The notes: generated from the letters alone by a model not told the origin. A DNA stretch of 64,000 nt from an uncultured Candidatus Saccharibacteria bacterium (GCA_964385825.1 CAYLPX010000002.1:1281-65280), one strand, 5' to 3'. Counted from the first letter of the stretch, positions 6,295 to 42,760 are shown. Made by a program: numbers and translations.

Positions 6295-6475
6295 TGTGTA
6301 ATGTAGCTAACTACCACCAAGGATTTCTTGATGATTTTACTTGTTTTTTGGTAACCCAGCCACTAAAGAAACGGTGGTTTCTCTCGCGCTCCAGCATTAC
6401 CTCCAACAAAAAAGGCACTAAGTGCTTAGAGAGGATATTAGCAAGGATTATAGGGGGTGTCAAACAGGAGAACTT

Positions 6476-6501
6476 GTAGGGACAAACCGTAGGGACAAAC
6501 C
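6476..6501 (+). repeat. perfect tandem direct repeat gtagggacaaacc x2
   Basis: Read directly from the sequence: gtagggacaaacc gtagggacaaacc. It lies about 80 bp upstream of the island ORF at 6579. Confidence 0.9.
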
Positions 6502-6578
6502 TAAGAAATCTAGCTATTTTACAAGTGGTTTGCTAGAGTGCAGCCAGCTGTAAACATCCACCAATCGAAGGAGGTCGC

Positions 6579-7004
6579 ATGATCTACCAAGTAGGCAGTC
6601 ACACCTTCACTCCCGGTCTCTACATGAAACTGAAGACGGGTGAGCTTTTTCTCTTCCACCACGCCGTCCAAAACAGCCGCAAGGGCACCGGGGAGCCAGG
6701 TTCGACCAAGATGGTATATGTCTACTCGAACATTGCCGACGGGGACTTCATCTACCGACATCTTCCCTACTCACAGCTTCTTGCACCCAGCATCGCATTG
6801 CAGCTCTGCGACATGTGCAACCCAATGGACAAAGCGCTTGTAAGGATAGTGTACGATGCCTTCATGCAAAATACTGTTTTCGCGCGAAATTTTGCAAAGC
6901 CATTCGCCGAGTGGGCGAGCATGCACCGTATCCCGCTTTCGGTAAGCACCTCGATTGCAGGGATTCTGCATTTCGACACCCACCCCATGTTTCATGGGGT
7001 CTGA
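6579..7004 (+). CDS. hypothetical protein on GC-rich island, antisense to the ribosomal operon
   Basis: 141 aa ORF preceded by AGGAGG (gaaggaggtcgcATG). It has high GC and high GC3, unlike its neighbours. A GC-rich terminator follows. Confidence 0.5.
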   Translation: MIYQVGSHTFTPGLYMKLKTGELFLFHHAVQNSRKGTGEPGSTKMVYVYSNIADGDFIYRHLPYSQLLAPSIALQLCDMCNPMDKALVRIVYDAFMQNTVFARNFAKPFAEWASMHRIPLSVSTSIAGILHFDTHPMFHGV

Positions 7005-7010
7005 CTCATC

Positions 7011-7051
7011 CCCCCCCCCGCCGCGGAGTACCGCGGCGGGGACTATTTTTT
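7011..7051 (+). terminator. GC-rich hairpin plus T-run after the island ORF
   Basis: cccccccccgccgcggagtaccgcggcggggac followed by tatttttta. Confidence 0.65.
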
Positions 7052-7060
7052 ATATTCCTA

Positions 7061-7103
7061 AAACAAAAACTCCTCCCTAGTTTAGGGAGGAGTTTTTGTT
7101 TTG
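7061..7103. terminator. bidirectional intrinsic terminator immediately downstream of rplE
   Basis: aaaacaaaaactcctccctagtttagggaggagtttttgtttt: a perfect 10 bp stem with A/T runs on both sides. It falls between rplE and rpsN, which are normally co-transcribed. Confidence 0.75.
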
Positions 7104-7104
7104 C

Positions 7105-7662
7105 TTATTTCTTTGCAGCTTCTTTCTTAAAGGGAAAACCTAAGTGATCAAAGAAGGCCTTAGCTTCAGCGCGAGTCTTGGCAGTTGTTACAATAGTGAT
7201 AGCAAGACCGAATACATCTTTGATTTCTTCATCCACCACTTCTGGGAACACTACATGCTCCTTAAGACCGATGGTCATGTTACCGATATTGTCTACTCCA
7301 GAAGCATTAATGCCACGAAAGTCCTTAGTACGAGGAAGAGACACGTGGAGCAGTTTATCTAGAAAACCGATCATGCGGCTTCCGCGAATGGTTACCTGAT
7401 ATCCAATAGGGTCTCCAATACGAGTCTTGTAGCTCGCAATAGCTTGCTTAGCCTTACGAACTACTGGCTTCTGACCAGTGATTTTGGCAAGACGATCAGC
7501 AACCAGTTCTAGCTTTTTCTTATCCTTAAATGAACCAGTTCCAACTGAAACCACCACCTTAGTAAGACGAGGTGCCTGCATCACGTTCTTGTAGCCGAAC
7601 TGATCCTTCATTACCTTGAAGGATTCTTCACTTAATGTTTTTACGCTTTTGATAGTTGCCAT
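7105..7662 (-). CDS. rplE: 50S ribosomal protein L5
   Basis: 185 aa; L5 family (MQAPRLTKVVVSVG...); position between rplX and rpsN. Confidence 0.9.
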   Translation of the reverse strand: MATIKSVKTLSEESFKVMKDQFGYKNVMQAPRLTKVVVSVGTGSFKDKKKLELVADRLAKITGQKPVVRKAKQAIASYKTRIGDPIGYQVTIRGSRMIGFLDKLLHVSLPRTKDFRGINASGVDNIGNMTIGLKEHVVFPEVVDEEIKDVFGLAITIVTTAKTRAEAKAFFDHLGFPFKKEAAKK

Positions 7663-7697
7663 ACAATTTAAATTAGGACAGTTAGTCGGTTCAAGAA

Positions 7698-8012
7698 TTA
7701 TTTGCCAGAAATAGTCGCTCCACTCTTTGCTGCAACACGGCTACGCTTCCCTTCTTCACGTACGATACGCACGCGAGTAGCGCCACCCTTCTTTGGATCA
7801 ACAATACTTACATTTGAAACATGTATAGGCATAGCTTTCTCCACAATCTGCCCCTTAGATCCACCCTTACGTGCCTTCTGGTGACACTTCTTAACATTCA
7901 CACCATCGACGAGCACCATATCGCGACTTGGGAGCGCGCGAGAAACCGTCCCGGTCTTACCTTTGTCCTTACCAGAAGTCACTATGATGTTGTCGCCTTT
8001 TCTGATTTTCAT
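7698..8012 (-). CDS. rplX: 50S ribosomal protein L24
   Basis: KOW-motif L24 (MKIRKGDNIIVTSGKDKGKTG). The start is more likely the second Met of the tracked ORF. Confidence 0.85.
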   Translation of the reverse strand: MKIRKGDNIIVTSGKDKGKTGTVSRALPSRDMVLVDGVNVKKCHQKARKGGSKGQIVEKAMPIHVSNVSIVDPKKGGATRVRIVREEGKRSRVAAKSGATISGK

Positions 8013-8024
8013 ATGCATTAAAAA

Positions 8025-8396
8025 TTACACTACTTCTGGAGCTAGAGAAATAATCTTTTGGAATCCCATTTCAGAAAGTTCACGAGGAATAGGACCGAAT
8101 ACACGTCCGCCACGTGGCTCCTTACGCTCCTTATCGAGTACCACAACTGCATTCTCATCAAAACGAATGTAAGAACCATCCTTGCGGCGAAAATCTTTCT
8201 TAGTGCGAACTACAATAGCAGGAAGAATTTCCTTTTTCTTTACGCCCTTACGAGGCTCGGCGATTTGCACTGAGAGAATAACGATATCCCCAATACGAGC
8301 ATAGCGCTTCTTAGAGCCACCAAGCACCTTAAACACACGTCCGATTTTAGCTCCGGTGTTATCTGCTATTTTGACGATTGATCGTGGTTGAATCAT
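8025..8396 (-). CDS. rplN: 50S ribosomal protein L14
   Basis: 123 aa; MIQPRSIVKIADNTGAK matches the L14 N-terminus (MIQ..T.L.VADNSGA). Confidence 0.9.
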   Translation of the reverse strand: MIQPRSIVKIADNTGAKIGRVFKVLGGSKKRYARIGDIVILSVQIAEPRKGVKKKEILPAIVVRTKKDFRRKDGSYIRFDENAVVVLDKERKEPRGGRVFGPIPRELSEMGFQKIISLAPEVV

Positions 8397-8420
8397 ACGG
8401 TTTAGTTTATCTTAAAGTAG

Positions 8421-8699
8421 TTAGACTACCTTGAAGTGCTTATCTTTAGAAATTGGCGGACACTCAACGATAGTTACCGTATCCCCTAGCGCCTTAGTGT
8501 TCCCAACATCATGCGCCTTAAAACGCTTACTCTGCATAACGTACTTGTCGTACTTTGGGTGTTTTTCGTAACGGTCGATACGGACAACAATAGTGTCCTT
8601 CATCTTGGTAGACACAACAACCCCAGTAAGCTCACGAGGAGCTCCAGTTGTTACAACTACTTTAGTTGCGGCTGTTTGTTGTGTTTTCTTGGTTGCCAT
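8421..8699 (-). CDS. rpsQ: 30S ribosomal protein S17
   Basis: 92 aa; OB-fold S17 pattern; operon position. Confidence 0.85.
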   Translation of the reverse strand: MATKKTQQTAATKVVVTTGAPRELTGVVVSTKMKDTIVVRIDRYEKHPKYDKYVMQSKRFKAHDVGNTKALGDTVTIVECPPISKDKHFKVV

Positions 8700-8705
8700 A
8701 TGGTT

Positions 8706-8897
8706 TTACTTTGAAGTAACCGTACTGTCATTAAGAAGGGTCATGATATGTGCAATTGTCTTCTTAATACCACGGCCCTCGCGAACATTACGGGTTTTAC
8801 TCCCTGCAATACTGAAACGAAATACTCGCAAAGCCTCTCGCTTATCAGCAAGTAGCTTCATGAGTTCTGATTCAGTTTTGGTTCTAAGTTCCTTCAT
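8706..8897 (-). CDS. rpmC: 50S ribosomal protein L29
   Basis: 63 aa; MKELRTKTESELMKLLADKREAL is L29-like. Confidence 0.8.
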   Translation of the reverse strand: MKELRTKTESELMKLLADKREALRVFRFSIAGSKTRNVREGRGIKKTIAHIMTLLNDSTVTSK

Positions 8898-8927
8898 AAG
8901 TCCTTGATATTAGCCTCTTTTTAGTGC

Positions 8928-9353
8928 TTACGCAAGTTCGCGAGAAATCACCTTACACTTTACGGGAAGCTTAGCTCCAGCCTTGCGAAGTGCTTCACGA
9001 GCCTCTTTCTCTGGTACCCCATCAATCTCAAAAATGATACGTCCTGGGCGAGTTTCAAACTGGTATCCCTGAAGGTCTCCCTTACCCTTTCCCATACCTA
9101 CTTCAGCTGGCTTACCTGTATATGGGAAATCAGGGAAAATACGGATCCACATCTTACCAGTCTTACCAGCAGCACGTGATACTACCTTACGAGCTGCTTC
9201 AATCTGGTTAGAGCGAATACGAGCAGCTGTGGTAGCTTTGAGCCCAAAGGATCCAAAAGAAAGAGTCACGCCGCGAGTGTCCGCAGTCATACGCTTTGGG
9301 TTACGACGAGTTGTTTGTCGCTTTCGGTATTTAACTTTCTTTGGGACTAACAT
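8928..9353 (-). CDS. rplP: 50S ribosomal protein L16
   Basis: 141 aa; MLVPKKVKYRK..., the L16 family N-terminus. Confidence 0.9.
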   Translation of the reverse strand: MLVPKKVKYRKRQTTRRNPKRMTADTRGVTLSFGSFGLKATTAARIRSNQIEAARKVVSRAAGKTGKMWIRIFPDFPYTGKPAEVGMGKGKGDLQGYQFETRPGRIIFEIDGVPEKEAREALRKAGAKLPVKCKVISRELA

Positions 9354-9380
9354 AGTAGTGTAATTAAAAAATATCTAAAA

Positions 9381-10055
9381 TTATGAACGACGTTTCTTGT
9401 CCTCGGCGAACACCTCACCTTTGTAAATCCAAACCTTAATACCAAGGTCTCCATAAGGAAGGTGTGCACGCTCGCGAGCAAAGTCAATATCAGCACGGAA
9501 CGTCTGAAGTGGGATACGGCCACGCTTCAACTGCTCAGAGCGAGCAATATCTGTTCCACCAAGGCGTCCTCCGATTAAGATACGCACTCCCTTCACATCG
9601 CGGTTGGCTACTACCTTATCAATAGTCTGCTTGAGTACACGGCGGTATGGAAGACGCTTTTCAAGCCCTTCAACAATCATGAAAGCAACAATGTGTGCAT
9701 CAGATTCAGGTGAGCGAACTTCCTCTATATCCATCTTGAACTCTTTAGTCTTAGCTAGATTGTTCTTTTCAATAAACTTAGTGATGTCTTTGCGGAGCTT
9801 CTCTGATCCCTCACCGGAGCGACCGATAATCATACCAGGGCGTGAAGTCTTAATGATAAGACGCATCGTGTCTGCTCCACGCTCAATACCAACATCACTC
9901 ACAAAGAAACCACGAAGGCGTGTCGCTAAATACTTGCGAAGGAGTGTATCACTCTTAAGAAAATGCTTGTACGTGTCACCCACTCCAAACCAGCGGCTTT
10001 TCCAGTCGCGGATGATTCCAAGTCTATGTGCGTATGGGTGAACGGTGTGTGACAT
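9381..10055 (-). CDS. rpsC: 30S ribosomal protein S3
   Basis: 224 aa; KH domain; GIIRDWKSRWF motif. Confidence 0.9.
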   Translation of the reverse strand: MSHTVHPYAHRLGIIRDWKSRWFGVGDTYKHFLKSDTLLRKYLATRLRGFFVSDVGIERGADTMRLIIKTSRPGMIIGRSGEGSEKLRKDITKFIEKNNLAKTKEFKMDIEEVRSPESDAHIVAFMIVEGLEKRLPYRRVLKQTIDKVVANRDVKGVRILIGGRLGGTDIARSEQLKRGRIPLQTFRADIDFARERAHLPYGDLGIKVWIYKGEVFAEDKKRRS

Positions 10056-10069
10056 ACTTTATAAAATAA

Positions 10070-10495
10070 TTATTTATCGGTTTTCTTAGTTACTTTCTTA
10101 GCAGCCTTTTTTGGTGCAGCCTCTACAGCAGCTACCGCTACTTTCTTACTACCCTTCTTTGGAGCTTCCTTACGAGTATCAAGAACAACTGCAATATGGC
10201 TTGAACGCTTCTTGATAACGTACGCAGCTCCACGAGCACGAGGAGATACACGCTTAAGCACAAGCCCCTTGTTCACCGTAACACTCTTTACTACAAGCTT
10301 ATCAGCATCAATGCCGAGGTTTGCCTTAGCATTGGCGGCAGCAGAGGAAATGAGCTTATGCACTGGGTTAGCCCCACGCTTCACAAGAAAAGCAAGCTCG
10401 CCGAGCGCTTGAGGCACGCTCTTACCAGTTACGAGGTTAGCGATAAGGCGAACCTTGCGAGGAGACTGTCTGTAATTAGTAAGTTGTGCTTTCAT
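10070..10495 (-). CDS. rplV: 50S ribosomal protein L22 with Lys/Ala-rich C-terminal tail
   Basis: L22 core plus an AAVEAAPKKAAKKVTKKTDK tail. Confidence 0.9.
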   Translation of the reverse strand: MKAQLTNYRQSPRKVRLIANLVTGKSVPQALGELAFLVKRGANPVHKLISSAAANAKANLGIDADKLVVKSVTVNKGLVLKRVSPRARGAAYVIKKRSSHIAVVLDTRKEAPKKGSKKVAVAAVEAAPKKAAKKVTKKTDK

Positions 10496-10512
10496 AATAT
10501 TAAAATTCTAGC

Positions 10513-10860
10513 CTACTTCTTCTTAGCATCGGCTGTTGATGCAGTAGCGGCTTTAGCGGCAGCGATTTCGCTCTCCTTACGCTTCTGCTCTAGTTCCTTC
10601 TGCATCTTACCACCATGGCGAGTAAACTTCTTAGTTGGTGAAAACTCACCAAGGCGATGTCCCACCATGTCTTCAGTCACGAGTACAGCGATATGATCCT
10701 TACCGTTATGCACCCCGAAAGAAAAACCTACCATTTCAGGAGAAATCTGACTGCTGCGGTACCACGTCTTAATGACCCCAGTTTCCTGTGGCTTTTTGCC
10801 CTCAATTTTCTTGAGTAGCTTTGGTTCAACGTATGGACCTTTTTTAAGTGATCGTGACAT
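10513..10860 (-). CDS. rpsS: 30S ribosomal protein S19 with C-terminal extension
   Basis: [19 protein letters not shown]... FTRHGGKM; S19 family. Confidence 0.9.
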
Positions 10861-11027
10861 GAAAAATGTAAGTTTTTGGTTGGCTCAGCTTCTTTTTTGG
10901 CAATTAAAAAAACCTTATCGCTAAGGTCTCCAAGGCGCCAACCATGGAAGCTATAGGAGTAGACTATCAAACCCATACAAATTGTCAAACCCCCGCCATC
11001 CCCCCACCAAAAGTAGTAAATCATAAA

Positions 11028-11055
11028 TTGACAAAAACTATAAATGTGTTAGATT
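11028..11055 (+). promoter_or_regulatory. sigma70-like promoter candidate for the island ORF at 11126
   Basis: TTGACA (11028-11033), a 16 nt spacer, then TAGATT (11050-11055). A hairpin plus T-run follows at 11061-11087 (ccggttcacttaggtgaacgttttttg), and the SD and ATG follow that. Confidence 0.4.
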
Positions 11056-11125
11056 AAAAGCCGGTTCACTTAGGTGAACGTTTTTTGTTCCTCACAACGC
11101 CCCCCTAGGGGGAGAAAGGTAGCAC

Positions 11126-11695
11126 ATGCTTAGCAGGAAAAAATACCCCACCCTCGTGGGACTCATGGCCACCATTCCGGCTGTGAAAGTGGAAGTGGAG
11201 CAACTTCTCGCGGAGAAGTCCACTCCGAGCGGCGCCGCCGACAGGGCCGTGCACCAAATCGGTGCGGTGTTGGCCAAGCACGGCATGCTGAACGGCTTCG
11301 CGAAGTTGGCAGCAACCCCTCCGACCGCGCAAAGTACGGGTTCGGACGCTACCAGCTTCGGCTTCCCGATCGGCAACGATCGGCATGAACTCACCCGCCT
11401 GCGATTGCTTGCGGCCAAGGCTGAGGGCAACTACGATGAAGTGCGCGCCGAGGCCATGGCCACGCTTACGAACTGGGGAGGCAAGAGCCCCAGACGAGTC
11501 ACGGCCGGCCTCATCAGCCAAATCGTGGAAGGCACAGGGCGGCCCCGCTTCATTGCGGAACTGCTTGCCGCCAGCCCCACCGAACAGCATGGCGAGTTGC
11601 TGAAGCATGTCGCAGGCTACTACAGCAGAATCGGCCTGCGGGCTTCGCCCAAAAAGCTCCTCGCCGAGGCGCGGCAGGCAGGCTACCAGATCTAA
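11126..11695 (+). CDS. hypothetical protein on GC-rich island, antisense to the ribosomal operon
   Basis: 189 aa ORF with very high GC3 (gcc, ggc, ctg codons). SD ggggagaaaggtagcacATG. A strong terminator follows. The product is Ala/Leu-rich and helical. Confidence 0.5.
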   Translation: MLSRKKYPTLVGLMATIPAVKVEVEQLLAEKSTPSGAADRAVHQIGAVLAKHGMLNGFAKLAATPPTAQSTGSDATSFGFPIGNDRHELTRLRLLAAKAEGNYDEVRAEAMATLTNWGGKSPRRVTAGLISQIVEGTGRPRFIAELLAASPTEQHGELLKHVAGYYSRIGLRASPKKLLAEARQAGYQI

Positions 11696-11726
11696 GCTCT
11701 AGGCCGAGTAGGCCATGTTCTTCTCC

Positions 11727-11765
11727 GTCGGGAACCCTTCGTGGTTCCCGACTTTTTTATTTTTA
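11727..11765 (+). terminator. intrinsic terminator of the island ORF
   Basis: gtcgggaacccttcgtggttcccgac followed by ttttttattttt. Confidence 0.75.
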
Positions 11766-11897
11766 GAAAAATATTTGTAACCTTTTTTAAAATCTTCTAG
11801 TTTCATTAATACAAATTGATACTTGATGATTGCTAAGCCGAAAGTAGTTTAGCAGTCGCCAAGTGGAAATTTGGAAGTTTCCGTTTTGAATGCAAAT

Positions 11898-11925
11898 CCC
11901 CGCCGGCGCATGCGCGCCGGCGGGG
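11898..11925. repeat. perfect 28 bp GC palindrome
   Basis: ccccgccggcgcatgcgcgccggcgggg, sitting at the 3' end of the minus-strand island ORF. Confidence 0.85.
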
Positions 11926-11941
11926 TGTTCCGATGGCACCG

Positions 11942-12373
11942 CTACGAATGAGGTGCCGAACTGGTGTTGAAGAGTTCGGGGTCCGGCCAATCAAGCTTCG
12001 CCCCATCCAAAAGCGGCAAGGCCGCCTGGAAAAGATGGGCGATGTTGAAACACGCCGACTGGACGTCTTTTCCTGCCGTGTCGTCCTGCGCATCCTTCTG
12101 CAGAACGCGTATGAACATCTCCCCCACACGTATCCGACAGCGCCCCTCCTCACCTCGGCTCAAAACGCCTTGCCGAAAGGAAGCGGTGAGGATCTGGAGC
12201 AGTGTCTTGATTTCGTCACGATTCGGCCACGCTGAAGACTGAGCCCCAACCGATACCCTCTTCGTGAGTTGCTCAAGACGGTCCAGAATGAGCTCAACCA
12301 GAGTGTCCGCGACGCTCTTGATCGGCCGCTGCACGTACGCAACAGCCTCATTTATTTCAGGGTTTTCGTGCAC
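11942..12373 (-). CDS. hypothetical protein on GC-rich island
   Basis: 143 aa ORF with a GTG start preceded by GGAGGTG. High GC. The overlapping alternative ORFs on both strands make the coding call uncertain. Confidence 0.4.
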   Translation of the reverse strand: MHENPEINEAVAYVQRPIKSVADTLVELILDRLEQLTKRVSVGAQSSAWPNRDEIKTLLQILTASFRQGVLSRGEEGRCRIRVGEMFIRVLQKDAQDDTAGKDVQSACFNIAHLFQAALPLLDGAKLDWPDPELFNTSSAPHS

Positions 12374-12435
12374 GGGGCACCTCCAAGAAAAAAGGGTTAT
12401 ACAGCTCGCTTGAGCTTATACTCCACTAGTAAAAA

Positions 12436-12476
12436 GTCAAACGCCGCGGGCCTCCCGCGGCGTTTGACTTTTTGTT
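12436..12476. terminator. bidirectional intrinsic terminator immediately downstream of rplB
   Basis: gtcaaacgccgcgggcctcccgcggcgtttgac, flanked by aaaaa and tttttgttt. Confidence 0.75.
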
Positions 12477-12490
12477 TAATTTTTTCCGAA

Positions 12491-13333
12491 TTATCGCTTC
12501 TTTCCAACCTTGCGGCGAGAAACGATAAGGCGATTTGAGTATTTCTTTGGAGTTCGTGTCTTCTGACCCTTTCCAGTTGGGCGTCCCCACTTACTCTTAG
12601 CGCGGCGGAGTCCTCTTCCCTGACGTCCTTCACCTCCTCCATGTGGGTGATCAACTGGGTTCATAGCAGATCCGCGAACTGTTGGGCGAATACCCTTCCA
12701 GCGATTACGTCCTGCTTTACCAATCTTCTCGAGATGGTGTTCGTCATTAGATACTTCTCCAACTGATGCCCATGCAGTGTTGTGTACCTTACGAACTTCA
12801 GTTGATGGCATCTTAAGAAGGGTGTAGTCACCATCTTGCGCGATAACCTCAGCTGAGTTTCCGGCAGAGCGGCAAAGCTTAGCTCCACCTTCTGGCTTAA
12901 TTTCAATATTATAAACAAGCGTACCTACTGGCATAGCACCGAGCGGAAGACGGTTAGCAGCTGTAATAGGAGCCTTCTCTGCTGTTACAATCTCCTGTCC
13001 TACTACCACACTCTTTGGAGCCAACAGGTAACGCTTGTCACCATCCTTGTACCCAACAAGTGCAATAAAGCCTGTGCGGTTTGGGTCGTACTCAATAGTC
13101 AAAACCTTTCCCGGAACATTAAGTTTGTTCATCTTGAAATCAATAAGACGATACTGACGCTTGTGTCCTCCTCCCTTATGGCGAGTGGTGATGCGCCCAG
13201 CATTGTTGCGTCCTGATCCGCGGCGAAAACCCGTAAGGAGTGCCTTGTGCGGCTTATCCCCTGAAAGGAGATCACGATATGGAATCGTGGTCATGTTACG
13301 GCGTGATGGACTTGTTGGTCGGTACGTTTTCAT
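12491..13333 (-). CDS. rplB: 50S ribosomal protein L2
   Basis: 280 aa. The L2 signature (GGGEGRQGRG ... HPHGGGEG) is evident. Confidence 0.9.
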   Translation of the reverse strand: MKTYRPTSPSRRNMTTIPYRDLLSGDKPHKALLTGFRRGSGRNNAGRITTRHKGGGHKRQYRLIDFKMNKLNVPGKVLTIEYDPNRTGFIALVGYKDGDKRYLLAPKSVVVGQEIVTAEKAPITAANRLPLGAMPVGTLVYNIEIKPEGGAKLCRSAGNSAEVIAQDGDYTLLKMPSTEVRKVHNTAWASVGEVSNDEHHLEKIGKAGRNRWKGIRPTVRGSAMNPVDHPHGGGEGRQGRGLRRAKSKWGRPTGKGQKTRTPKKYSNRLIVSRRKVGKKR

Positions 13334-13347
13334 AGCTCTTTAATTAT

Positions 13348-13698
13348 CTATACAAATTCAATCTTATCTCCGTCCTTAAGATATACGTAGGCCTTGCGAG
13401 AAGCAGCGGTCTTACCACGCTTGCCACGAGCAACCACACGCTTAGCGGGAGTCTTCACAATAGCGATCTTAAGTGGGTGTACTTTGTAGAGTTTAAACAC
13501 TGCCTCCTCAACAGCCCCCTTAGTAGTTCCCTGTGGAATATCAAAGGTGTAGACGTTGCGTTCAGCAAGTACCGTTGCCTTCTCAGTGATACGAGGAATC
13601 ATACGAAAAGTAGCTTGGTTTACACCTGACTTTGCCTTAGTAGTAGCTTCTACTACTGCAGCTGATCCTTCTTCTTTTTTATTGGAGAAAATAGCCAT
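13348..13698 (-). CDS. rplW: 50S ribosomal protein L23
   Basis: 116 aa; operon position between rplD and rplB. Confidence 0.85.
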   Translation of the reverse strand: MAIFSNKKEEGSAAVVEATTKAKSGVNQATFRMIPRITEKATVLAERNVYTFDIPQGTTKGAVEEAVFKLYKVHPLKIAIVKTPAKRVVARGKRGKTAASRKAYVYLKDGDKIEFV

Positions 13699-13700
13699 AC

Positions 13701-14354
13701 CTATTTAGTTATACTCTTAACATAACTCTCTCCATCAACGATAGCCACATACTTGTAGTTAATGAGGTCTGCTACGTTTAAGTTACGGGCTTCAACAAGA
13801 GAAATATTACCAAAGTTGCGGAAACTCTTTTCAACAGCAGTGTCCTTCTTGGCAAGGGCCATCATAAGTGCGTTCTTACGCTTTGTTGGCATAGCTTCAA
13901 ACCCCTTAACGTTTCCAAGCTTGTTGAACACAGCCTTAGCTTCTTTTGTCTTGGCCTCAGGGAGAGCGATACTATCTAGGAAAAGCACTTCATTATCACG
14001 AACCTTTTGAGAAAGAAGTGTGTAGAGCGCCTTCTTACGCATCTTGTCGTTTACCTTACGATCATAGTTCTTATCATTCTTTGGACCGAAAGTTACACCT
14101 CCATGGCGCCAGATTGGCGAGCGCTTTGAACCATGACGTGCACGTCCTGTTCCCTTTTGCTGCCACGGCTTCTTGTTGCTACCTGCAACCTCTCCACGAT
14201 CTTTAGTGTGAGCCGTACCGTTGCGGCGACTTGAGAGCATAGAAGTTACTACTTGGTGAACCAAGTCAGCATTCCAAGGTAGTCCAAAAATGTCCTCAGG
14301 TAGTGTAAGAGTACCTGCTTTCTTTCCTTCTTGATTGTAAAGTGTTGCTTCCAT
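13701..14354 (-). CDS. rplD: 50S ribosomal protein L4
   Basis: KPWQQKGTGRARHGSKRSPIWRHGGVTFGPK motif. Confidence 0.9.
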   Translation of the reverse strand: MEATLYNQEGKKAGTLTLPEDIFGLPWNADLVHQVVTSMLSSRRNGTAHTKDRGEVAGSNKKPWQQKGTGRARHGSKRSPIWRHGGVTFGPKNDKNYDRKVNDKMRKKALYTLLSQKVRDNEVLFLDSIALPEAKTKEAKAVFNKLGNVKGFEAMPTKRKNALMMALAKKDTAVEKSFRNFGNISLVEARNLNVADLINYKYVAIVDGESYVKSITK

Positions 14355-14359
14355 ATGTT

Positions 14360-35774: not shown

Positions 35775-36017
35775 ATGGCAAAATCTTGCGCAATCACCAA
35801 TAAGACTTCAATCGTAGGCGGGGGCTACTCGAACGAGACTCGTGCTACCCAGTTCAACCCTACTGGCAAGCGTCGCCGCCATGTGAACCTCCAAAAGAAG
35901 CGTATTTTCATACCTGAACTCAACAAGAGTATGACCCTTACCCTCTCAACAGCTGCTATCCGTACTATCAACAAGAATGGGGCTTACGCCACACTCAAGA
36001 AGGCAGGACTCATCTAA
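35775..36017 (+). CDS. rpmB: 50S ribosomal protein L28
   Basis: 80 aa; MAKSCAITNKTSIVGGGYSNETRATQ...; L28 family. Confidence 0.8.
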   Translation: MAKSCAITNKTSIVGGGYSNETRATQFNPTGKRRRHVNLQKKRIFIPELNKSMTLTLSTAAIRTINKNGAYATLKKAGLI

Positions 36018-36060
36018 AACAGTTTATAGTTTTTAGTGGATAGTCTTATAGAAAACAAAA

Positions 36061-36097
36061 GCAAACTGCCGGCACGCGAAGCGTGCCGGCAGTTTGC
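36061..36097. terminator. bidirectional terminator after rpmB
   Basis: gcaaactgccggcacgcgaagcgtgccggcagtttgc followed by ttttcccc. Confidence 0.7.
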
Positions 36098-36173
36098 TTT
36101 TCCCCTTGACTCATTTTAAAACCGGCGTAAAGTTAATAGTGTCCCATTTCGGACTACACTCAAGGAGAGCATC

Positions 36174-36593
36174 ATGCAAAAGCATCGCCCGTCCCTGTGG
36201 AAATCGTTCTTCGCCAACCCCGCCAATGCGTTCGTCGGTATCGTGTCCCTGTTCGTCGGCATCCTCGCCTGGCTCGCCGAGCCCGATGCGCTGGCCGCGG
36301 CCTACACGACGTTCGACTTGCGTCCCTGGCTCGATCCGGTCCACGTCTTCGGCATGCTGTCGGCGTTTGGCCTCTTCCTGGTCGGCCTCGGTATTGCGTT
36401 CATCGTTGCGAAAACCGTCGCCCGGCACTACTTCAGCCACCGCCGGCCCGCGCTTCGCCAACTGTTGACCTTCGCCGTCGCCCAGACCAAAACTGCCTGG
36501 AAAAACCTGATCGCCATCGGCCACGCTACGGCCGCCATGATCGGCGCCGCGCTGCCGGCCTTCCGCCACCGCTCGGCTCCCCTGCTGAGCTGA
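36174..36593 (+). CDS. hypothetical small membrane protein on GC-rich island
   Basis: 139 aa. SD caaggagagcatcATG. GC3 is above 80%. Two or three predicted TM helices (FVGIVSLFVGILAWL; VFGMLSAFGLFLVGLGIAFIVA). Terminators follow. Confidence 0.55.
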   Translation: MQKHRPSLWKSFFANPANAFVGIVSLFVGILAWLAEPDALAAAYTTFDLRPWLDPVHVFGMLSAFGLFLVGLGIAFIVAKTVARHYFSHRRPALRQLLTFAVAQTKTAWKNLIAIGHATAAMIGAALPAFRHRSAPLLS

Positions 36594-36615
36594 CCGGTCG
36601 GCGTACTACAGTCCC

Positions 36616-36673
36616 GGCGCAACTGCGAGAGCTAGTTGCGCCAAAACCCCGCTTCGGCGGGGTTTTTTATTTT
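36616..36673 (+). terminator. tandem hairpins ending in a canonical intrinsic terminator
   Basis: ggcgcaactgcgagagctagttgcgcc, then aaaaccccgcttcggcggggttttttatttt. The T-run overlaps the stop codon of the convergent comEC-MBL gene. Confidence 0.8.
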
Positions 36674-37548
36674 ACCGAAACCTTACTACCATCAGAATCT
36701 ATTTCTATTCTCCCCAAGTTATCAGTGCGGAGAGTTTCAATATGAAGTGCATTAAACGTAGCAAGTGTTTCTTTATGTGGATGCCCATACCTATTATCCT
36801 TCCCCACCGATATCACCGCTATACTGGGGTGCACCGTTTGTACATACGTAGGATCACTCGAGGTGTGAGACCCATGATGCCCAGCTTTGAGCACGTCACT
36901 TTCTAAACCGGTTCCATCTAGCTGTGTTAGATGTTGCTCAATGTCTCTCGGTGCATCACCGCTAAATATAAAGTGGGTAGAGCCATACGTGAGACGCGCG
37001 ACAATTGAAGCTTCATTACTTTCTACATATGTCACATCTTTATCCGGATAGAGAATGTCTAGTGCTACTCCATCTTCCTCATCAAGTACCAGTCTCATCC
37101 CGCGTTTTGCAATAACTCTTTGATTCCCCAACTTTACTGCTTCAGTATCTAACCTCTTAAATGCCTGCGTATCTTTAGTTCTATTCCCCGACTCAAGAAA
37201 CATGCCTACTTTATAGCGTGACAATACTTCAGGTAACCCTCCCACATGATCTGCATCAGGGTGAGTTGCTATAACCACATCAATATCATGATCAAGTGGC
37301 GAAAGTACTGCTCCGAGTTCCGTGAGCACTTTATTATCTGTAGGACCTCCATCAATCAATACTTGATTTCCATTCGGTGCTTCAATAAGTGTGGCGTCTC
37401 CCTGTCCAATATTAAGATAAAAAACTTTCAAAGTAGTTTTTCTTGTTTGAGGGGAAAAAGCCTCTCGCCAAACAAAAACATTGCTGAACAATAAGATAAA
37501 TACTACCCCTGGCAATATATAATTTCGCACACTTCGCAGTTTATCCAT
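36667..37548 (-). CDS. ComEC-like MBL-fold metallo-hydrolase domain protein (stand-alone ComEC C-terminal domain)
   Basis: 293 aa. An N-terminal TM is followed by a metallo-beta-lactamase fold (HPDADHVGG; GHHGSHTSS). Confidence 0.7.
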   Translation of the reverse strand: MDKLRSVRNYILPGVVFILLFSNVFVWREAFSPQTRKTTLKVFYLNIGQGDATLIEAPNGNQVLIDGGPTDNKVLTELGAVLSPLDHDIDVVIATHPDADHVGGLPEVLSRYKVGMFLESGNRTKDTQAFKRLDTEAVKLGNQRVIAKRGMRLVLDEEDGVALDILYPDKDVTYVESNEASIVARLTYGSTHFIFSGDAPRDIEQHLTQLDGTGLESDVLKAGHHGSHTSSDPTYVQTVHPSIAVISVGKDNRYGHPHKETLATFNALHIETLRTDNLGRIEIDSDGSKVSVK

Positions 37549-37619: not shown

Positions 37620-38213
37620 ATGCACCATTACGAACCACGAAAGTTTAATCTCCCAGAATTAGCTGGCATTTCAACTAAGCAGTTAGAAGTTCATATCAAA
37701 CTCTATGAGGGGTATGTGAAGTTCACTAACACCTTGCGCGATACTCTCGCTGAATTACGAAAAGACAGTGAGAAGAATGCTTATGCCATCAGCGAGGTCC
37801 TTCGCCGTTTCGGCTTTGAGTTTAACGGCATGCGCATGCACGAGTACTACTTTGAACAATTTGAAGGTGGGGCTACAGCAGCCAATACTGAAAGCACAGT
37901 AGCCAAGGCACTTATAGAAAAGTATGGATCATGGGATGACTTCATACTTCACTTTAAAAACACTGGTCTTATGCGCGGTATTGGCTGGACCATACTTGCC
38001 TACGATCCAATTGGCAAAACTCCACATATATACTGGGTAGCTGATCATGAATTGGGGCAACTTGCCGGACTTCCCGTCCTTCTTGCTATGGATATGTGGG
38101 AGCATGCCTACATGGTTGATTATGTACCAGCTGAAAAAGCAAAGTATGTTGAGGCTTTTCTTTCAAATGTGAACTGGTCCCATGTGCAAAATAGATTTGA
38201 TAAAATAGCCTAA
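37620..38213 (+). CDS. sod: Fe/Mn superoxide dismutase
   Basis: 197 aa; motif DMWEHAYMVDY (the D-x-WEHAYY signature) plus N-terminal His ligands. Confidence 0.85.
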   Translation: MHHYEPRKFNLPELAGISTKQLEVHIKLYEGYVKFTNTLRDTLAELRKDSEKNAYAISEVLRRFGFEFNGMRMHEYYFEQFEGGATAANTESTVAKALIEKYGSWDDFILHFKNTGLMRGIGWTILAYDPIGKTPHIYWVADHELGQLAGLPVLLAMDMWEHAYMVDYVPAEKAKYVEAFLSNVNWSHVQNRFDKIA

Positions 38214-38267
38214 ATAAGGTTAACTTGTTTTTAGTATCATCCGATCAACTATTGTGAGGAGTTCGGC

Positions 38268-38483
38268 ATGCGTTCCGCTCAAAATGAACAAAATGTCCGG
38301 GAGTTCGCTTTCGGATGCTCCCCGCCGGCAGTCAACAAGCCCGTACCACGAATGACCTTGCGGGAGATGGCGCAGAACGCCCGCATCGACAAGGTGAACG
38401 AGGCATGCCTTGGTGTCCTGCGCAATCTTCGGTCACGGGCCAAAGACAAAGGCGGCGCTTTCCCGGGAGTTCCGGGGTTCTGA
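38268..38483 (+). CDS. hypothetical small protein on GC-rich island
   Basis: 71 aa ORF; SD gtgaggagttcggcATG; about 58% GC; a terminator follows. Confidence 0.35.
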   Translation: MRSAQNEQNVREFAFGCSPPAVNKPVPRMTLREMAQNARIDKVNEACLGVLRNLRSRAKDKGGAFPGVPGF

Positions 38484-38494
38484 AAAATCCCGCA

Positions 38495-40021
38495 TTACAC
38501 GCCGGCAATTGCCGGCGTGTTTTTCTTTTGGAGTTTCCATAGGAAAATTCCAATACTTACATAGGAGAGGAACATGACCCAAGCTGGAAATTGCGGCACC
38601 GCAAAAGATGCAAAAGATAAGTTGCCAAATCTTTCAGCAATTAGTATTTCATAGTGAAGGAGCCAGTAGGTGACATATGCGAAGGGAGTTGCAATAGCAG
38701 TACTTATAAGAGCACATACTCCTGTAATAAATCCAAGAAGCATAGTGAGTGGGATGAGTGGCAAAACCAAAAGATTGGCAAGGAGAGCTACCACTGAAAA
38801 AGTCCCGATGCTGTAGAGAATAAATGGCAATACAAATAGCTGCGTTGAAAGTGTAGCTACTACTATCTCCTGCAGGCCAAACTTTCTCGGCACCACACGT
38901 AGATACCGCTCAAACAATGGTGAAACATAAATAAGCCCCACTGTTGAGAGAAATGATAATTGAAAAGAAAGATCAAATACTAAAATTTTGGGATTAATGA
39001 ACACCATAAGTACTCCTGCCAAAATAAGTGCTCGCGTGATGTCATAGTCTCGCCGAATAAATGTAGCGAGAAGTGCGAGTATTGCCATAACTGATGCGCG
39101 TACCACCGTTGCCGAACCTCCCGTCATAATAGCGAAAAGTAAAATCCCCACCACCCCGAAAAATATTCGTTTGCGAATAGCAAGAAACGAAAACAGAAAC
39201 ATGAATGCCGTTGCCACAATCGTGATGTTGTAACCCGAAAGCACAATGATGTGAACGAGCCCCGCACTGCGAAAACTATTTTGCAAATCTTTTGAAAGGG
39301 ATTGATTGCCACCAAGGAGTATCCCACCAAGAAATGAACTTTCGGGGGTTGTTATAACTCTATTAAGTCCACTTAAAAATTTCTGCTTAAGTAGAAAAAG
39401 ATTTCTCTTTAAGCTATTGCCCCCACCCTCCCCCACAACGGTAATACCGGGAAAGGTCATTTCATATAATATTCCTGACTTTGCTAAATAGGCTTCGTAG
39501 TTAAATATTCTCCCGTTTGATGTCTCGAAATTCTGTGGTTTCTTAAGAGTACCTACAATTGTTACTTCCTCGCCATAGTTATAGAGCGTCGGGGGAAGTG
39601 TGGTTATAAGTACTTTTTCTTTTACTGGATATGTTACTCCGCGATACTCCAATGTAGTAACTAAAACAGTGAGTCTTGTTGTTTTCTCACGATAGTCTGA
39701 CTCTTCAGTAATGAGTCCGTGAAATGCCGCTCTCGTACCTAAAGCCACTGCCATGCTATCTACCTGCGAAGTGTCATACTCAAATCGCAGTATTCCAAGG
39801 ACTGTCCCAAAAAGAAAAACACTCACTAGAAACGAGTGAGTGTTTTTCTTTTTAAGTATGAGACCGAGACCAAAGATTGCAAAAGCCAGAAGCAAAAGGC
39901 TATAAAGTATATACTCTGGGACATCATAGAGTGACCGAATAAAAATTCCGACTAAGAAACTCCCGAGTATGGAAAAAATAAGTCGATTCGTGCTCACAAA
40001 AATTATGTAGTTGTATCCCAC
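38495..40021 (-). CDS. comEC: competence protein ComEC (DUF4131 plus competence membrane domain; no MBL domain)
   Basis: 508 aa polytopic membrane protein with the ComEC/Rec2 architecture but no C-terminal lactamase domain. Confidence 0.75.
   Translation of the reverse strand: MGYNYIIFVSTNRLIFSILGSFLVGIFIRSLYDVPEYILYSLLLLAFAIFGLGLILKKKNTHSFLVSVFLFGTVLGILRFEYDTSQVDSMAVALGTRAAFHGLITEESDYREKTTRLTVLVTTLEYRGVTYPVKEKVLITTLPPTLYNYGEEVTIVGTLKKPQNFETSNGRIFNYEAYLAKSGILYEMTFPGITVVGEGGGNSLKRNLFLLKQKFLSGLNRVITTPESSFLGGILLGGNQSLSKDLQNSFRSAGLVHIIVLSGYNITIVATAFMFLFSFLAIRKRIFFGVVGILLFAIMTGGSATVVRASVMAILALLATFIRRDYDITRALILAGVLMVFINPKILVFDLSFQLSFLSTVGLIYVSPLFERYLRVVPRKFGLQEIVVATLSTQLFVLPFILYSIGTFSVVALLANLLVLPLIPLTMLLGFITGVCALISTAIATPFAYVTYWLLHYEILIAERFGNLSFASFAVPQFPAWVMFLSYVSIGIFLWKLQKKNTPAIAGV
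38497..38529 (+). terminator. GC palindrome plus T-run; the same sequence encodes the last 8 codons of comEC on the other strand
   Basis: acacgccggcaattgccggcgtgt followed by ttttctttt. Confidence 0.7.
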
Positions 40022-40686
40022 TCACGGATAAGTGCGTCCTCTTCCTCCTTACTAAGCACTTTTTTAAACTTTGCCCCCGTCCGCCCTTCCACCTTTTTCT
40101 TGCACGCGTCCCAAGTCGCGTGTCGTGTGATATGTCCATCTACCTTACTCACATACGAGTATGCCTTACCCTTCCTTGTACCACTCGCTTTGATAAGTCC
40201 CACTGCTTGATGCGGGTAATGCTTTTTGCTTCCGGTATACAGTTCTACTTCCTTACCACGCGCAAATGAGTTCGCAATAATGTCCACCCGCTCATTGAGA
40301 GCAATTCCAGCATGCCCCTTCACATGCACCCACTCAACCGTTCGGTCTTCCACAATAGCAAGGAGTTCCTCCCAAAGATCTTTGTTGAGAACTGGCTGCT
40401 TCAGCGATGTTTGCCAATTATTTTTCTTCCAACCAAAAATCCATTTGGTAATACCATTAATCACATACTGCGAATCAGCATGTAGTTTAATCTCACTATT
40501 TTTAGGCGTGACACGGAGACCTTCAATAGTTGCCTTAAGTTCCATTCTGTTATTGGTCGTGTGTGGCTCACTTCCCCCTAGCTCTACAATATGTGACCCA
40601 TCAGTAACATATGCCCCCCATCCTCCAGGACCCGGATTGCCGATTGCTCCCCCATCGCTATATATAGTGTATATGCTCATTGCCAT
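40003..40686 (-). CDS. rnhA: ribonuclease HI with C-terminal hybrid-binding (Cauli_VI/HBD-like) domain
   Basis: RNase H core (YSDGGAIGNPGPGGWG ... NNRMELKA ... HVKGHAGIALNERVD). The C-terminal roughly 60 aa is AYSYVSKVDGHITRHATWDACKKKVEGRTGAKFKKVLSKEEEDALIREW. This matches the HBD pattern (Y-x-V..G...TW.EC...V.G..GA.FKKF...EEA). Confidence 0.8.
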   Translation of the reverse strand: MAMSIYTIYSDGGAIGNPGPGGWGAYVTDGSHIVELGGSEPHTTNNRMELKATIEGLRVTPKNSEIKLHADSQYVINGITKWIFGWKKNNWQTSLKQPVLNKDLWEELLAIVEDRTVEWVHVKGHAGIALNERVDIIANSFARGKEVELYTGSKKHYPHQAVGLIKASGTRKGKAYSYVSKVDGHITRHATWDACKKKVEGRTGAKFKKVLSKEEEDALIREWDTTT

Positions 40687-40767
40687 CTACTATACCAAAT
40701 TGAATTATGATTGACTTCCCTTCTCTATATGATTGACTACAGAAAGACCCTAGAGAAGGAGATGGGC

Positions 40768-41142
40768 ATGAAACAGGAAGACAAGCATGTTGCCTTCGTT
40801 CGCTTCACTCCGGCTCGAAAACTGGAATGGGAAGCGAACAATCATCAGCTGGAGCTGAGCTTTGATACCGATGACACTATTGTCCCCGAAGTCGGGGCAA
40901 AACTCACGGTATACATCCCACGCGGAGCGCCTGACTCGGTACGCTATGTGTCCCGAGGCCTTGCTAGAGTAACCAAGGTTCACAGGAATGTGACTGGGAT
41001 TTTTGAGATCACCGTCTCTTACCAAGGAAACTCGGTTTCTGATCCGCCGCAACACACCGCGGCGGATCATTTGTTTATACAATATCGACAATACGCAATC
41101 GGATTTCTGGATATCGTCCAAAAGTTGATCGCTCCAGGTTAG
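40768..41142 (+). CDS. hypothetical ORF on moderately GC-enriched segment, overlapping the 3' end of recJ (uncertain)
   Basis: SD agaaggagatgggcATG. About 50% GC. An internal hairpin plus T-run lies at 41043-41080. It overlaps recJ by 68 bp, so the coding call is low confidence. Confidence 0.3.
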   Translation: MKQEDKHVAFVRFTPARKLEWEANNHQLELSFDTDDTIVPEVGAKLTVYIPRGAPDSVRYVSRGLARVTKVHRNVTGIFEITVSYQGNSVSDPPQHTAADHLFIQYRQYAIGFLDIVQKLIAPG

Positions 41143-42760
41143 CAATCAACGTTATTCTCTCGCCCTCCTTTACTTCTCTCGTGCTGAAAAATTCTATTGC
41201 TCTCACAAAATCCCCATTTGTTTTACGAAAAGTTAATTCCAAATGTTCCCCTGTTTTACCAAACATTCGTGCCTTCTCCGGCACAATATTCTGGAGCATA
41301 AAAATAGGTTTTGGGTTCCCCATTCCAAAAGGAGCAAGGGGTTCAATAGCTCGCCAAGTCGCCATGTTCACTTCATCGAGTGGAATAATACTATCAACAA
41401 AAACTTCTTCGCTTTCCCCAACCTCCTTAACTGTCATATAAGCCTTAGAAAGTTCTTCTTCAAGGAGATGGACATATTCTTGCGCTACCTGAAAACCACC
41501 CGAGGCTGCGTGACCCCCAAACTCAAGAAACAAATCTTTCGGTACCGCCCCCATAAGAGCTACTAAGTCCACCGTCCCATCGGAGCGGCAAGAACCTTTG
41601 AGAGTTTCTCCTCCTTCTCGTCCCCAGAGAAACACTGGGCGACTATGTTCTTCAACTAACGTGTTGGCAGCGAGTCCCAAAAGTCCTGGACGCCAATTCG
41701 GGTTCCCTAACACAATAACCTCGCGGAGCTCCTCGCGCTCTGAAAGGTTGTGCTTCATTTCTTTAACCATAGAAGCCACTACTCCTTTCCGAGTGTCATT
41801 TAATTTTTGTAACTCTTTAGCTAGGGTCTCACCATTTCCTCCCTCACTCGCGGAAAGTAAATCAAAAGCAAGACGAGGATCACCCATACGTGAGGCAGCG
41901 TTGATGCGTGGCGCTATCATAAAGCCAATGTCATCCTCTGTGATAGTAGCTTGATTCATTTTCATCACACGCAAAAGTTTCTGTAGTCCAGGACGAGGCG
42001 ACTTACGAAGTACTTTTAATCCATAATGTGCAAAGACTCTATTCTCTCCAGTAAGTGGGACCATATCCGCCACGGTTGAAATACCTACTAAGTCGAGTAG
42101 CCATTTCTCCCACCCTTCTACTAAATTAAAATTTCCTTTGGCAATAAGGGCTTGTACTAGTTTGTAAGCAACAGCTGCACCACAAAGCATGTCATAGGCG
42201 TACTCACAATCTTCTTGTTTACTATTAAGTATGGCGAACGCTGGGGGTAATTCGCCGTGTGGCAAATGGTGGTCAGAAATAATTACATCCATCCCAAGTT
42301 CATTGGCTCTCGTTACTGGCAGGACATCAGTGATACCACAATCAACAGTGATAATAAGCGTTGTTCCCTCTTTTGCTAACGTCTCCATCGCCTTCACATT
42401 CATCCCATACCCTTCGGTATACCTATGGGGAATGTAGTTAGTGAAATTGGCATACCCAATCTTTTTAAAAAAATCATGAAGGATGACTCCACCCGGTATT
42501 CCATCATGATCATAATCACTATAGATAGTGATACGCTCCGCGTTTTCTATTGCCTTAAGTATCCGAATAACTGACTTCTCCATGCCAAGAATAGAAAGTG
42601 GGTCGTGAGTATGATCTTCATACGAAGGCTGCAAAAACTTTTGTGCGTCCTCTAGGGTAGTAACCCCTCGCGAGACTAAAAGTGATTGCTGAAGTGGGTG
42701 AAATATTGAGAGTGCTTCATGGGATATTTGGGGAGGTTGTTTAAGGGAGTACTTTCGCAT
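41075..42760 (-). CDS. recJ: single-stranded-DNA-specific exonuclease RecJ
   Basis: 561 aa; DHH family motifs (DYDHDGIPG, ISDHHLPH) plus a DHHA1 region. Confidence 0.9.
   Translation of the reverse strand: MRKYSLKQPPQISHEALSIFHPLQQSLLVSRGVTTLEDAQKFLQPSYEDHTHDPLSILGMEKSVIRILKAIENAERITIYSDYDHDGIPGGVILHDFFKKIGYANFTNYIPHRYTEGYGMNVKAMETLAKEGTTLIITVDCGITDVLPVTRANELGMDVIISDHHLPHGELPPAFAILNSKQEDCEYAYDMLCGAAVAYKLVQALIAKGNFNLVEGWEKWLLDLVGISTVADMVPLTGENRVFAHYGLKVLRKSPRPGLQKLLRVMKMNQATITEDDIGFMIAPRINAASRMGDPRLAFDLLSASEGGNGETLAKELQKLNDTRKGVVASMVKEMKHNLSEREELREVIVLGNPNWRPGLLGLAANTLVEEHSRPVFLWGREGGETLKGSCRSDGTVDLVALMGAVPKDLFLEFGGHAASGGFQVAQEYVHLLEEELSKAYMTVKEVGESEEVFVDSIIPLDEVNMATWRAIEPLAPFGMGNPKPIFMLQNIVPEKARMFGKTGEHLELTFRKTNGDFVRAIEFFSTREVKEGERITLIANLERSTFGRYPEIRLRIVDIV

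Follow-up and report, generated by a model that had tools for sequence, protein, structure and literature searches.

Unrelated, moron-like orphan minigenes lie between the core operons of a Paceibacteria-like chromosome

Here we describe a 64,000-nt stretch of an uncultured bacterial chromosome (CAYLPX010000002.1:1281-65280 of GCA_964385825.1; the whole stretch is called the window), in which about eight unrelated, moron-like orphan minigenes sit between core operons. They occupy seven islands, numbered i1 to i7 in coordinate order. Morons are defined as units with their own promoter and terminator and a deviant GC content (PMC3594210). The minigenes are old residents, with the possible exception of i3, and are neither fresh imports nor assembly errors, because their GC-rich codon usage is kept in a sister species. 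As to where they came from, we prefer an old acquisition from a high-GC gene pool, with about even confidence; the possibility that their GC content is actively maintained is a serious rival and the more interesting one.

The window is part of a Patescibacteria (candidate phyla radiation, CPR; Paceibacteria-like) chromosome of 44.4% GC, and the closest genomes by ribosomal protein L2 are metagenome-assembled genomes of uncultured Patescibacteria/Paceibacteria. Its minus strand carries tuf (16452-17651), rpsJ, rplC-D-W-B, rpsS through to rplE, rpsN and rpsH, as well as rpsL, rpsG, fusA, two giant fibronectin-repeat surface proteins, comEC, rnhA, recJ and type IV pilus genes. The S10/spc ribosomal superoperon is normally contiguous and is here split into terminator-bounded units with orphan minigenes interleaved; since the core genes just upstream end in perfect palindromic terminators, the superoperon is read as separate units. 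The tRNAs of the window are confined to 61.6-64 kb. A phage-genome identity for the window was rejected, as a phage collection gave no near match and the ribosomal operons of a CPR chromosome are present. For comparison we used two stretches (L010 and L190) of one sister-species contig, CAZIPS010000006.1 of GCA_964541455.1, a further relative carrying the i2 and i3 slots (L170, from SRR34691368), and a close relative of L190 in the sister clade (L195, from DRR685535).

Composition, anatomy and orphan status of the islands

GC content was scanned in 150-nt windows. Four segments are sustained and GC-rich: 11083-11770 (60.6%), 11831-12390 (~57%), 36130-36709 (60.7%, peak 72%) and 38234-38540 (55.7%). 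Three others are weak, at 49.1% (6300-7100), 51.0% (15100-16040) and 49.9% (40740-41150), with local peaks of 0.57-0.63. The initial annotation had placed GC-rich islands against an AT-rich background; this stands for the four segments at 56-61%, but the remaining three reach only 49-51%, and the background is 44.4% rather than ~40%.

Host genes have a GC content at synonymous third positions (GC3s) of 0.363 ± 0.046, with a maximum of 0.484, and the extreme outliers are five island open reading frames (ORFs) at 0.64-0.85. The codon adaptation index of the island ORFs, with ribosomal genes as reference, is 1.7-4.4 sd below that of other host genes, and their products use more Ala, Arg and Pro and less Lys, Ile and Asn. 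The very high third-position GC and foreign-looking codon usage claimed earlier are therefore borne out, with low codon adaptation and z values of 6-10.6 in five ORFs, and the GC3 of all seven lies far from that of host genes (z 3.2-10.6).

The Shine-Dalgarno (SD) sequence, ORF and terminator of each unit were read in the sequence, while terminators and promoter-like sites found by scans are consensus predictions. Every island ORF has an SD sequence, and a predicted terminator-like hairpin with a T-run lies 3' of six of the seven ORFs. Predicted promoter-like sites precede i2 and i5 only. The proposed layout of one SD-led small ORF and one terminator per island was recovered in the scans, save that the only hairpin of i7 is inside the ORF and that island 4 has a second gene. 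The islands do sit in intergenic spacers, in the gaps between core transcription units. Six of the seven island ORFs are on the plus strand as described, but the statement that all neighbours are on the minus strand fails, since rpmB and sodA near i5 and i6 are also on the plus strand. The units and the host signals around them are as follows.

6463-6435 (minus strand direction): predicted promoter-like site for rpsN
6579-7004 (+): i1 minigene, 141 aa, led by AAGGAGG, orphan; GC3s 0.64, z 6.1
7016-7041 (+): i1 terminator, 11-bp all-GC stem followed by a T-run
7060-7102: perfect 20-bp palindrome, bidirectional terminator closing the rplE unit
11028-11055 (+): i2 promoter-like site, TTGACA-16-TGTTAGATT, diverging from the rpsS minus-strand site
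Opposite the i2 promoter at 11028-11055 (-): promoter-like TTGACA/TAGTCT for rpsS, read by eye
11126-11695 (+): i2 minigene, 189 aa, founder of a tiny CPR-only family; GC3s 0.75, z 8.5
11727-11752 (+): i2 intrinsic terminator
11774-11882: conserved non-coding element between i2 and i3, containing a hairpin
11942-12373 (-): i3 minigene, 143 aa, GTG start after GGAGGTG; GC3s 0.65, z 6.2
11925-11898 (-): i3 terminator, 12-bp all-GC stem
12431-12473: perfect 20-bp palindrome, terminator closing the rplB unit
15177-15428 (-): island 4a, basic small protein of 83 aa on the ribosomal-gene strand, GC3 0.49-0.51, followed by a hairpin at 15136-15158
15571-15927 (+): island 4b (i4) minigene, 118 aa from an AGGAGA-led ATG, or 139 aa from 15508; GC3s 0.53 (0.53-0.54), z 3.7
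15940-15959 (+): i4 terminator, kept in L010
15979-16031: perfect 26-bp palindrome, terminator closing the rpsJ unit
35775-36017 (+): rpmB
36058-36100: perfect palindrome, terminator after rpmB
36106-36133 (+): i5 promoter-like site, TTGACT-16-TAAAGT
36174-36593 (+): i5 minigene, 139 aa, with hydrophobic stretches, membrane-spanning by eye; GC3s 0.85, z 10.6
36643-36666 (+): i5 terminator
37620-38213 (+): sodA
38268-38483 (+): i6 minigene, 71 aa, led by GAGGAG; GC3s 0.65, z 6.2
38497-38520 (+): i6 terminator, overlapping the comEC stop codon
40768-41142 (+): i7 minigene, 124 aa, led by GAAGGAG, tail overlapping the 3' end of recJ; GC3s 0.51 (0.51-0.52), z 3.2
41040-41069: sole terminator-like hairpin of i7, inside the ORF

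The AlphaFold2 model of i2 is helical in its C-terminal half, and that of i3 is a four-helix bundle, confident in one of five models only.

The island proteins are not related to each other. All-against-all BLASTP of the island ORFs gave no match between different islands, and the only match with E<0.1 joins two frames within island 1 that overlap on opposite strands. Since there is no similarity among the island proteins they are not a family, and the dispersed gene family of the initial annotation falls away. No island ORF had a match in Pfam, PHROGs (no significant PHROG), PADLOC or NCBIfam. Against 5.8 billion proteins, i2, i3 and i5 found only themselves. In an exhaustive HMMER search, i2 had four relatives among 1.84 billion representatives. 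One represents its own cluster and another is the ortholog in the sister species; the third is a 193-aa protein encoded on L170, and the fourth is the C-terminal domain of P0005, a 483-aa protein (L171 8001-9452) adjoining rpsO in another CPR genome of ~43% GC. The i2-type domain of P0005 has a GC3 of 0.59 and the rest of the gene 0.44; a PDB sequence search with P0005 had no match. The P0005 gene also lies ~4 kb from an XerC/D-type tyrosine recombinase, among hypothetical genes. IMG/VR held no relatives of the i2 family or of i5, and tblastn with i5 and i3 against plasmids and phages had no match. For i1, i4, i6 and i7 the donor tests consisted of the family libraries. The high-GC source or host organism suggested as donor did not appear, as no homolog of i2, i3 or i5 was found outside a few CPR contigs.

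Conservation in relatives and the origin of high GC3

The sister species is closely related in its core genes, with ribosomal proteins 77-99% identical to those of the window and mostly above 90%. Identity at fourfold degenerate sites is 57% across ribosomal genes and 64% for the gene of the large surface protein, and the GC content of these sites (GC4) is ~0.26. DNA of the window and sister can be aligned at 73-88% across genes and regulatory spacers; the alignment breaks off at the bodies of the island ORFs and picks up again at their terminators. Of six testable islands (i1 is outside the test, as the sister contig ends in that slot), five have sister orthologs in the same slot and on the same strand, with similar length and protein-level homology. 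These and island 4a are given below with lengths and GC3 in the order window / sister.

i2: 189 / 188 aa, 38% amino acid identity, GC3 0.75 / 0.69
i4: 118 / 116 aa, 24% amino acid identity (pairwise E 8e-6), GC3 0.54 / 0.61
i5: 139 / 129 aa, 45% amino acid identity, GC3 0.85 / 0.85
i6: 71 / 59 aa, 36% amino acid identity, GC3 0.65 / 0.65
i7: 124 / 94 aa, 41% amino acid identity over 82 residues, GC3 0.52 / 0.63
83-aa ORF (island 4a): 83 / ~83 aa, 48-49% amino acid identity, GC3 0.51 / 0.41

The sister i7 ORF ends before recJ. With only 24-45% amino acid identity, the orthologs are not the identical, ordinary conserved genes in relatives that would have removed the puzzle. i2 and i4 have conserved promoter regions and terminators around them; both hexamer pairs, those of the i2 and rpsS promoter-like sites, are kept in L170, and the spacer is 74-76% identical in L010 and L170. 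The non-coding element at 11774-11882 is 88% identical in L010 and falls within an 89.5%-identical block in L170, and the neighbouring ORF bodies are unalignable; its fold z-score of -1.1 is not significant. The only island absent from L010 is i3 (11883-12490), which is replaced there by 70 nt. In L170, i3 is present at 89.5% nucleotide identity, and the i2 allele is only 38-42% identical.

Given a background dS of ~0.6-0.9 and a dN/dS of 0.3-0.6, vertical descent alone explains the 24-45% amino acid identity. Fourfold identity in the island ORFs is 0.42 (59/142), against 0.57-0.64 in the background, and higher mutability of G/C sites roughly predicts this low value. Between L190 and L195 there is no excess divergence in i5 or i6. 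As G/C sites should change faster when mutation is AT-biased, and L190/L195 show no excess, allele replacement, hypermutation and cassette swapping are not needed and were set aside.

Over the ~4.9 kb from rpmB to comEC, L190 and L195 differ by a dS of 0.15 in rpmB, 0.59 in a metallo-beta-lactamase (MBL)-fold gene and 0.26 in sodA, while comEC shows a 1.4% nucleotide difference. Such several-fold shifts in dS between adjacent genes indicate a fine-grained recombination mosaic in these CPR populations. A metagenome scan with the neighbouring MBL-fold gene found only distant relatives, at no more than 48% identity and of no use for synteny.

In relatives such as L031, L046 and L043, only 5-31 nt separate S10 from L3, L2 from S19 and L5 from S14, while in many Paceibacteria the same three gaps hold inserts of 0.5-6.4 kb. 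By eye these inserts are ordinary genes, e.g. dgkA, a phosphoribosyltransferase, pyrF and a sigma factor, and gap ORFs from 37 relatives (n=101) show no GC3 excess, with a mean difference of +0.009. A targeted insertion hot spot was therefore rejected, and the gaps are simply permissive operon breaks. Strong GC3 outliers were found only in the clade of the window and in L022, where a second GC-rich orphan cassette (2329-2841, 170 aa, GC3 0.77 in a 44% GC genome) lies in the S10-L3 gap. Its homolog in L042 (11023-11739) occupies the L2-S19 gap, and both genomes belong to related genera. The two cassettes share the 5' untranslated region motif ACCGGCAGnnCCGG...ACATT and have no Pfam or NCBIfam match. 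As read from the two sequences, the pair is one example of a GC-rich cassette that changed slot and took its own 5' untranslated region along.

We infer a foreign origin for the minigenes and propose the following course. They would have begun as moron-like additions from a high-GC gene pool, entering perhaps by the competence machinery of the window, which has comEC (38495-40021) and type IV pilus genes, including PilB/PilC-type genes, as well as one gene whose product has a pilin-type N-terminal methylation motif. Most would have been in place before the split from the sister species, with vertical inheritance afterwards and occasional gain or loss of whole units, as for i3. The products are lineage-restricted small proteins, predicted helical bundles and one apparently membrane-embedded. 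We conjecture a role at the cell surface or in interaction with a host or phage, from the hydrophobic, apparently membrane-spanning stretches of i5 and from the rapid evolution. In favour of acquisition, the islands are extra DNA relative to kin, with S10-L3, L2-S19 and L5-S14 nearly contiguous in several relatives and i3 missing in L010. Horizontal gene transfer and competence are reported for Patescibacteria (PMC12455944).

The likeness to phage and prophage morons (Juhala/Hendrix; PMC3594210) lies in the independent unit with its own terminator and, at two units here, a predicted promoter-like site, in the single small ORF of unassigned function, frequently an orphan with GC unlike its neighbours, and in the insertion between genes that are adjacent in related genomes. 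Unlike morons, the islands are in a core bacterial chromosome, in the ribosomal superoperon and housekeeping regions, rather than in a phage or prophage; their neighbours are ribosomal proteins, EF-Tu/EF-G, sodA, comEC, rnhA and recJ, and searches of phages, viral contigs and PHROGs were without match. Most islands are also position-conserved between species and not sporadic. Horizontally transferred islets undergoing Lawrence-Ochman amelioration are similar in their deviant GC3 and codon usage, shifted amino acids, orphans and, here, one presence/absence unit. However, the islands have no donor, mobility genes, tRNA or repeat boundaries in the data examined, and their composition has not relaxed to that of the host despite near-saturated synonymous sites.

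Several observations weigh against an old import. No donor homolog turned up among the 5.8 billion proteins, the 1.84 billion representatives or the collections of phages, plasmids and viruses. Five of the six testable islands also occur in the sister species and thus show little of the patchy distribution expected of acquired DNA, and the promoters and terminators are consensus predictions only. The decay of GC3 is a further difficulty. Under an F81 model, in which host fourfold sites (identity 0.57-0.64, GC4 ~0.26) are assumed to be near neutral, excess GC3 is expected to fall in each lineage to ~0.62-0.69 of what it was at the split. Even if the ancestor had a GC3 of 1.0, the model predicts ~0.75 or less today, while i5 is at 0.85 in both species and i2 at 0.75 and 0.69. 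Because i5 lies above neutral decay, some force seems to hold GC up; this agrees with a process in situ as well as, or better than, with an old import.

It is possible, though doubtful, that some GC-enriching force specific to these loci holds the orphan minigenes, unrelated and under weak constraint, at a GC3 of 0.65-0.85. Candidates for this force are biased gene conversion in cassette slots prone to recombination and selection that favours GC-rich codons or mRNA. It would operate in a genome where the remaining genes have a GC3 of 0.36, and across a divergence at which synonymous sites are almost saturated. The composition would then be an evolved, maintained property and not the fading mark of a foreign origin. 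Tentatively, the minigenes may even be native, lineage-specific genes for fast-evolving small proteins that were never imported. Their GC3 would then be upheld locally, through GC-biased gene conversion (gBGC) where cassette slots are prone to recombination, or through selection that favours GC-rich codons, rare codons or stable mRNA. Orthologs with nearly the same GC3 at 24-45% amino acid identity (i5, i6 and i2) are in line with a native origin, as are the shortfall of the neutral-decay estimate from 0.85, the higher GC3 of the i2-family domain within P0005, a dN/dS raised to 0.3-0.6 as gBGC can produce, and the recombination mosaic of L190/L195 with dS of 0.15-0.59 in adjacent genes. Crude polarisation in i5 gave 9 GC→AT and 5 AT→GC changes with 18 unpolarisable, far from the ~16:1 expected of a decaying sequence, in a count that comprises 14 sites and a saturated outgroup. 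A native origin is harder to reconcile with the shift in amino acid composition and in GC1/GC2, as after long residence in a high-GC genome, or with the other gap ORFs of the 37 relatives, which have no such excess. Tracts shaped by gBGC are best known in mammals and have been proposed for bacteria. Like the islands, they combine raised GC3, raised dN/dS and rapid divergence, in this case in a genome with a recombination mosaic. Unlike them, the islands go from 0.36 to 0.65-0.85, far beyond bacterial reports, and are limited to a handful of single-gene units. The bacterial gBGC effects in the 2015 work of Lassalle et al. are said to be far smaller than a step from 0.36 to 0.85, which counts against a native origin.

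The first proposal, that the cassettes arrived recently from a high-GC donor, for instance a host organism, is improbable. The foreign-looking codon usage would fit it, and for i3 so would the absence from L010 and the 89.5% identity in L170, whose i2 allele is at 38-42%. It is contradicted for i2, i4, i5, i6 and i7, which are syntenic, GC-rich and hyperdivergent in the sister species at 57-64% fourfold identity, leaving i3 as the only presence/absence case, and the searches with i2, i3 and i5 found no donor homologs.

Coding status, mobility and authenticity

The island ORFs are protein-coding, as judged from codon periodicity and substitution pattern. Three-position periodicity is significant for i1, i2, i3 and i5, with p from 2e-5 (i1) to 8e-10 (i5). 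The sense frames follow the order GC3 > GC1 > GC2 that is typical of high-GC coding sequence, and the long antisense ORFs are without such order. Between the window and L170, i3 has a dN of 0.061 and a dS of 0.198 (dN/dS ~0.31); between L190 and L195, i5 has a dN of 0.087 and a dS of 0.145 (dN/dS 0.60), where neighbour genes are at 0.06 or below. i2 is conserved as a protein although its DNA is unalignable. The genuine coding periodicity noted initially is thus upheld by both the GC3 > GC1 > GC2 order and a dN/dS of 0.3-0.6, and by these ratios the island products appear to be evolving very fast under weak purifying selection.

It is very unlikely that the GC-rich segments are structured non-coding RNA or DNA elements, with ORFs as by-products of a shortage of stop codons. 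GC-rich DNA does give long ORFs in several frames, e.g. antisense ORFs of 167 aa and 152 aa, the antisense frame is annotated by some gene callers, and fold z-scores reach -3.4 and -2.3 with terminators included. The strong frame-specific periodicity and a dN/dS below 1 argue otherwise, as do orthologs that keep start, SD, stop and length and the in-frame fusion in P0005. No island had a gathering-level Rfam match, and two permissive scans returned terminator-like hairpins only.

Slimmer still is the chance that the islands are a single dispersed selfish family with its own mobility, or integron-type cassettes. Their dispersed intergenic location and the palindromes at cassette ends invite this explanation. 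However, the units share no sequence similarity, their slots are stable between species, and the palindromes, as perfect stems followed by T-runs, are terminators. The region scanned (6000-16500) gave no shared DNA repeats, and neither there nor at the i3 junction were terminal repeats or duplications found; at that junction, comparison with L010 gave no target-site duplication. Neither the window proteins that were scanned nor the genes called in 26-46 kb include an integrase or transposase, and the selfish mobility raised in the initial annotation was not supported. Like the islands, integron cassettes consist of one small ORF, often an orphan and variable in GC, with an inverted repeat after it. 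The islands differ in being dispersed over 35 kb, in having their own SD and, in two cases, a promoter-like site, and in repeats that read as perfect GC terminator hairpins with T-runs and not as attC sites; no intI was seen.

An assembly chimera or high-GC contamination, to which the many short contigs ending at or near islands might point, has next to no probability, as four sources (JGI, Logan, ENA and NCBI) together give more than 10 independent assemblies with identical island and flank sequence, and other species' genomes hold orthologous islands. At JGI the identical sequence is present in at least five samples and at Logan in several runs; it is also in NCBI and in an ENA assembly (127.7 kb contig), and the longest recorded contig with these ORFs measures 178.7 kb. 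Junctions assembled independently in more than 10 samples are not chimeric. Protein look-ups with S12 and S19 returned the same population only. L173 differs from the window (7019-7093) in the two terminator hairpins after i1 and rplE, and L174 is ~15% divergent (7432-7621) at a contig end inside rplE; both are otherwise identical. The clustered differences and the contig breaks near islands hint at strain variation or assembly difficulty there.

Other features of the window and significance

Three further differences or matches were seen away from the islands. The rpsG-fusA gap (33165-33890, minus strand) is 1048 nt against 339 nt in the sister species, an insertion of ~700 nt. This insertion contains a 66-aa ORF (33647-33847) of ordinary AT-rich composition and a ~480-nt non-coding stretch of ~50% GC with a strong terminator at its end and a minimum free energy z-score of -2.8. 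The non-coding stretch has no Rfam match and is a candidate structured RNA. At 43266-43347 (minus strand), an 82-nt segment matches 23S rRNA positions 2130-2211 at 53.8 bits (gathering 50). These positions we take to be the L1 stalk, and the segment probably represents an mRNA leader that mimics this site and binds L1, not a piece of rRNA. Lastly, the gene for an 1175-aa fibronectin-III/peptidoglycan-binding surface protein (17947-21474) is absent in the sister species, where 22216 is joined directly to 18210.

Atypical GC is routinely taken as a sign of recent horizontal gene transfer, and these islands show the same sites and GC3 across species that are near saturation at synonymous sites. 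Composition-based island callers would mislabel such units, which may be part of why translation genes are reported as enriched in genomic islands of Patescibacteria (PMC12455944). If their GC is not maintained, the minigenes are simply old moron-like additions and of modest interest. If it is actively maintained, they would show something rare among bacteria, either a strong local drive towards GC or selection acting on the composition of particular genes.

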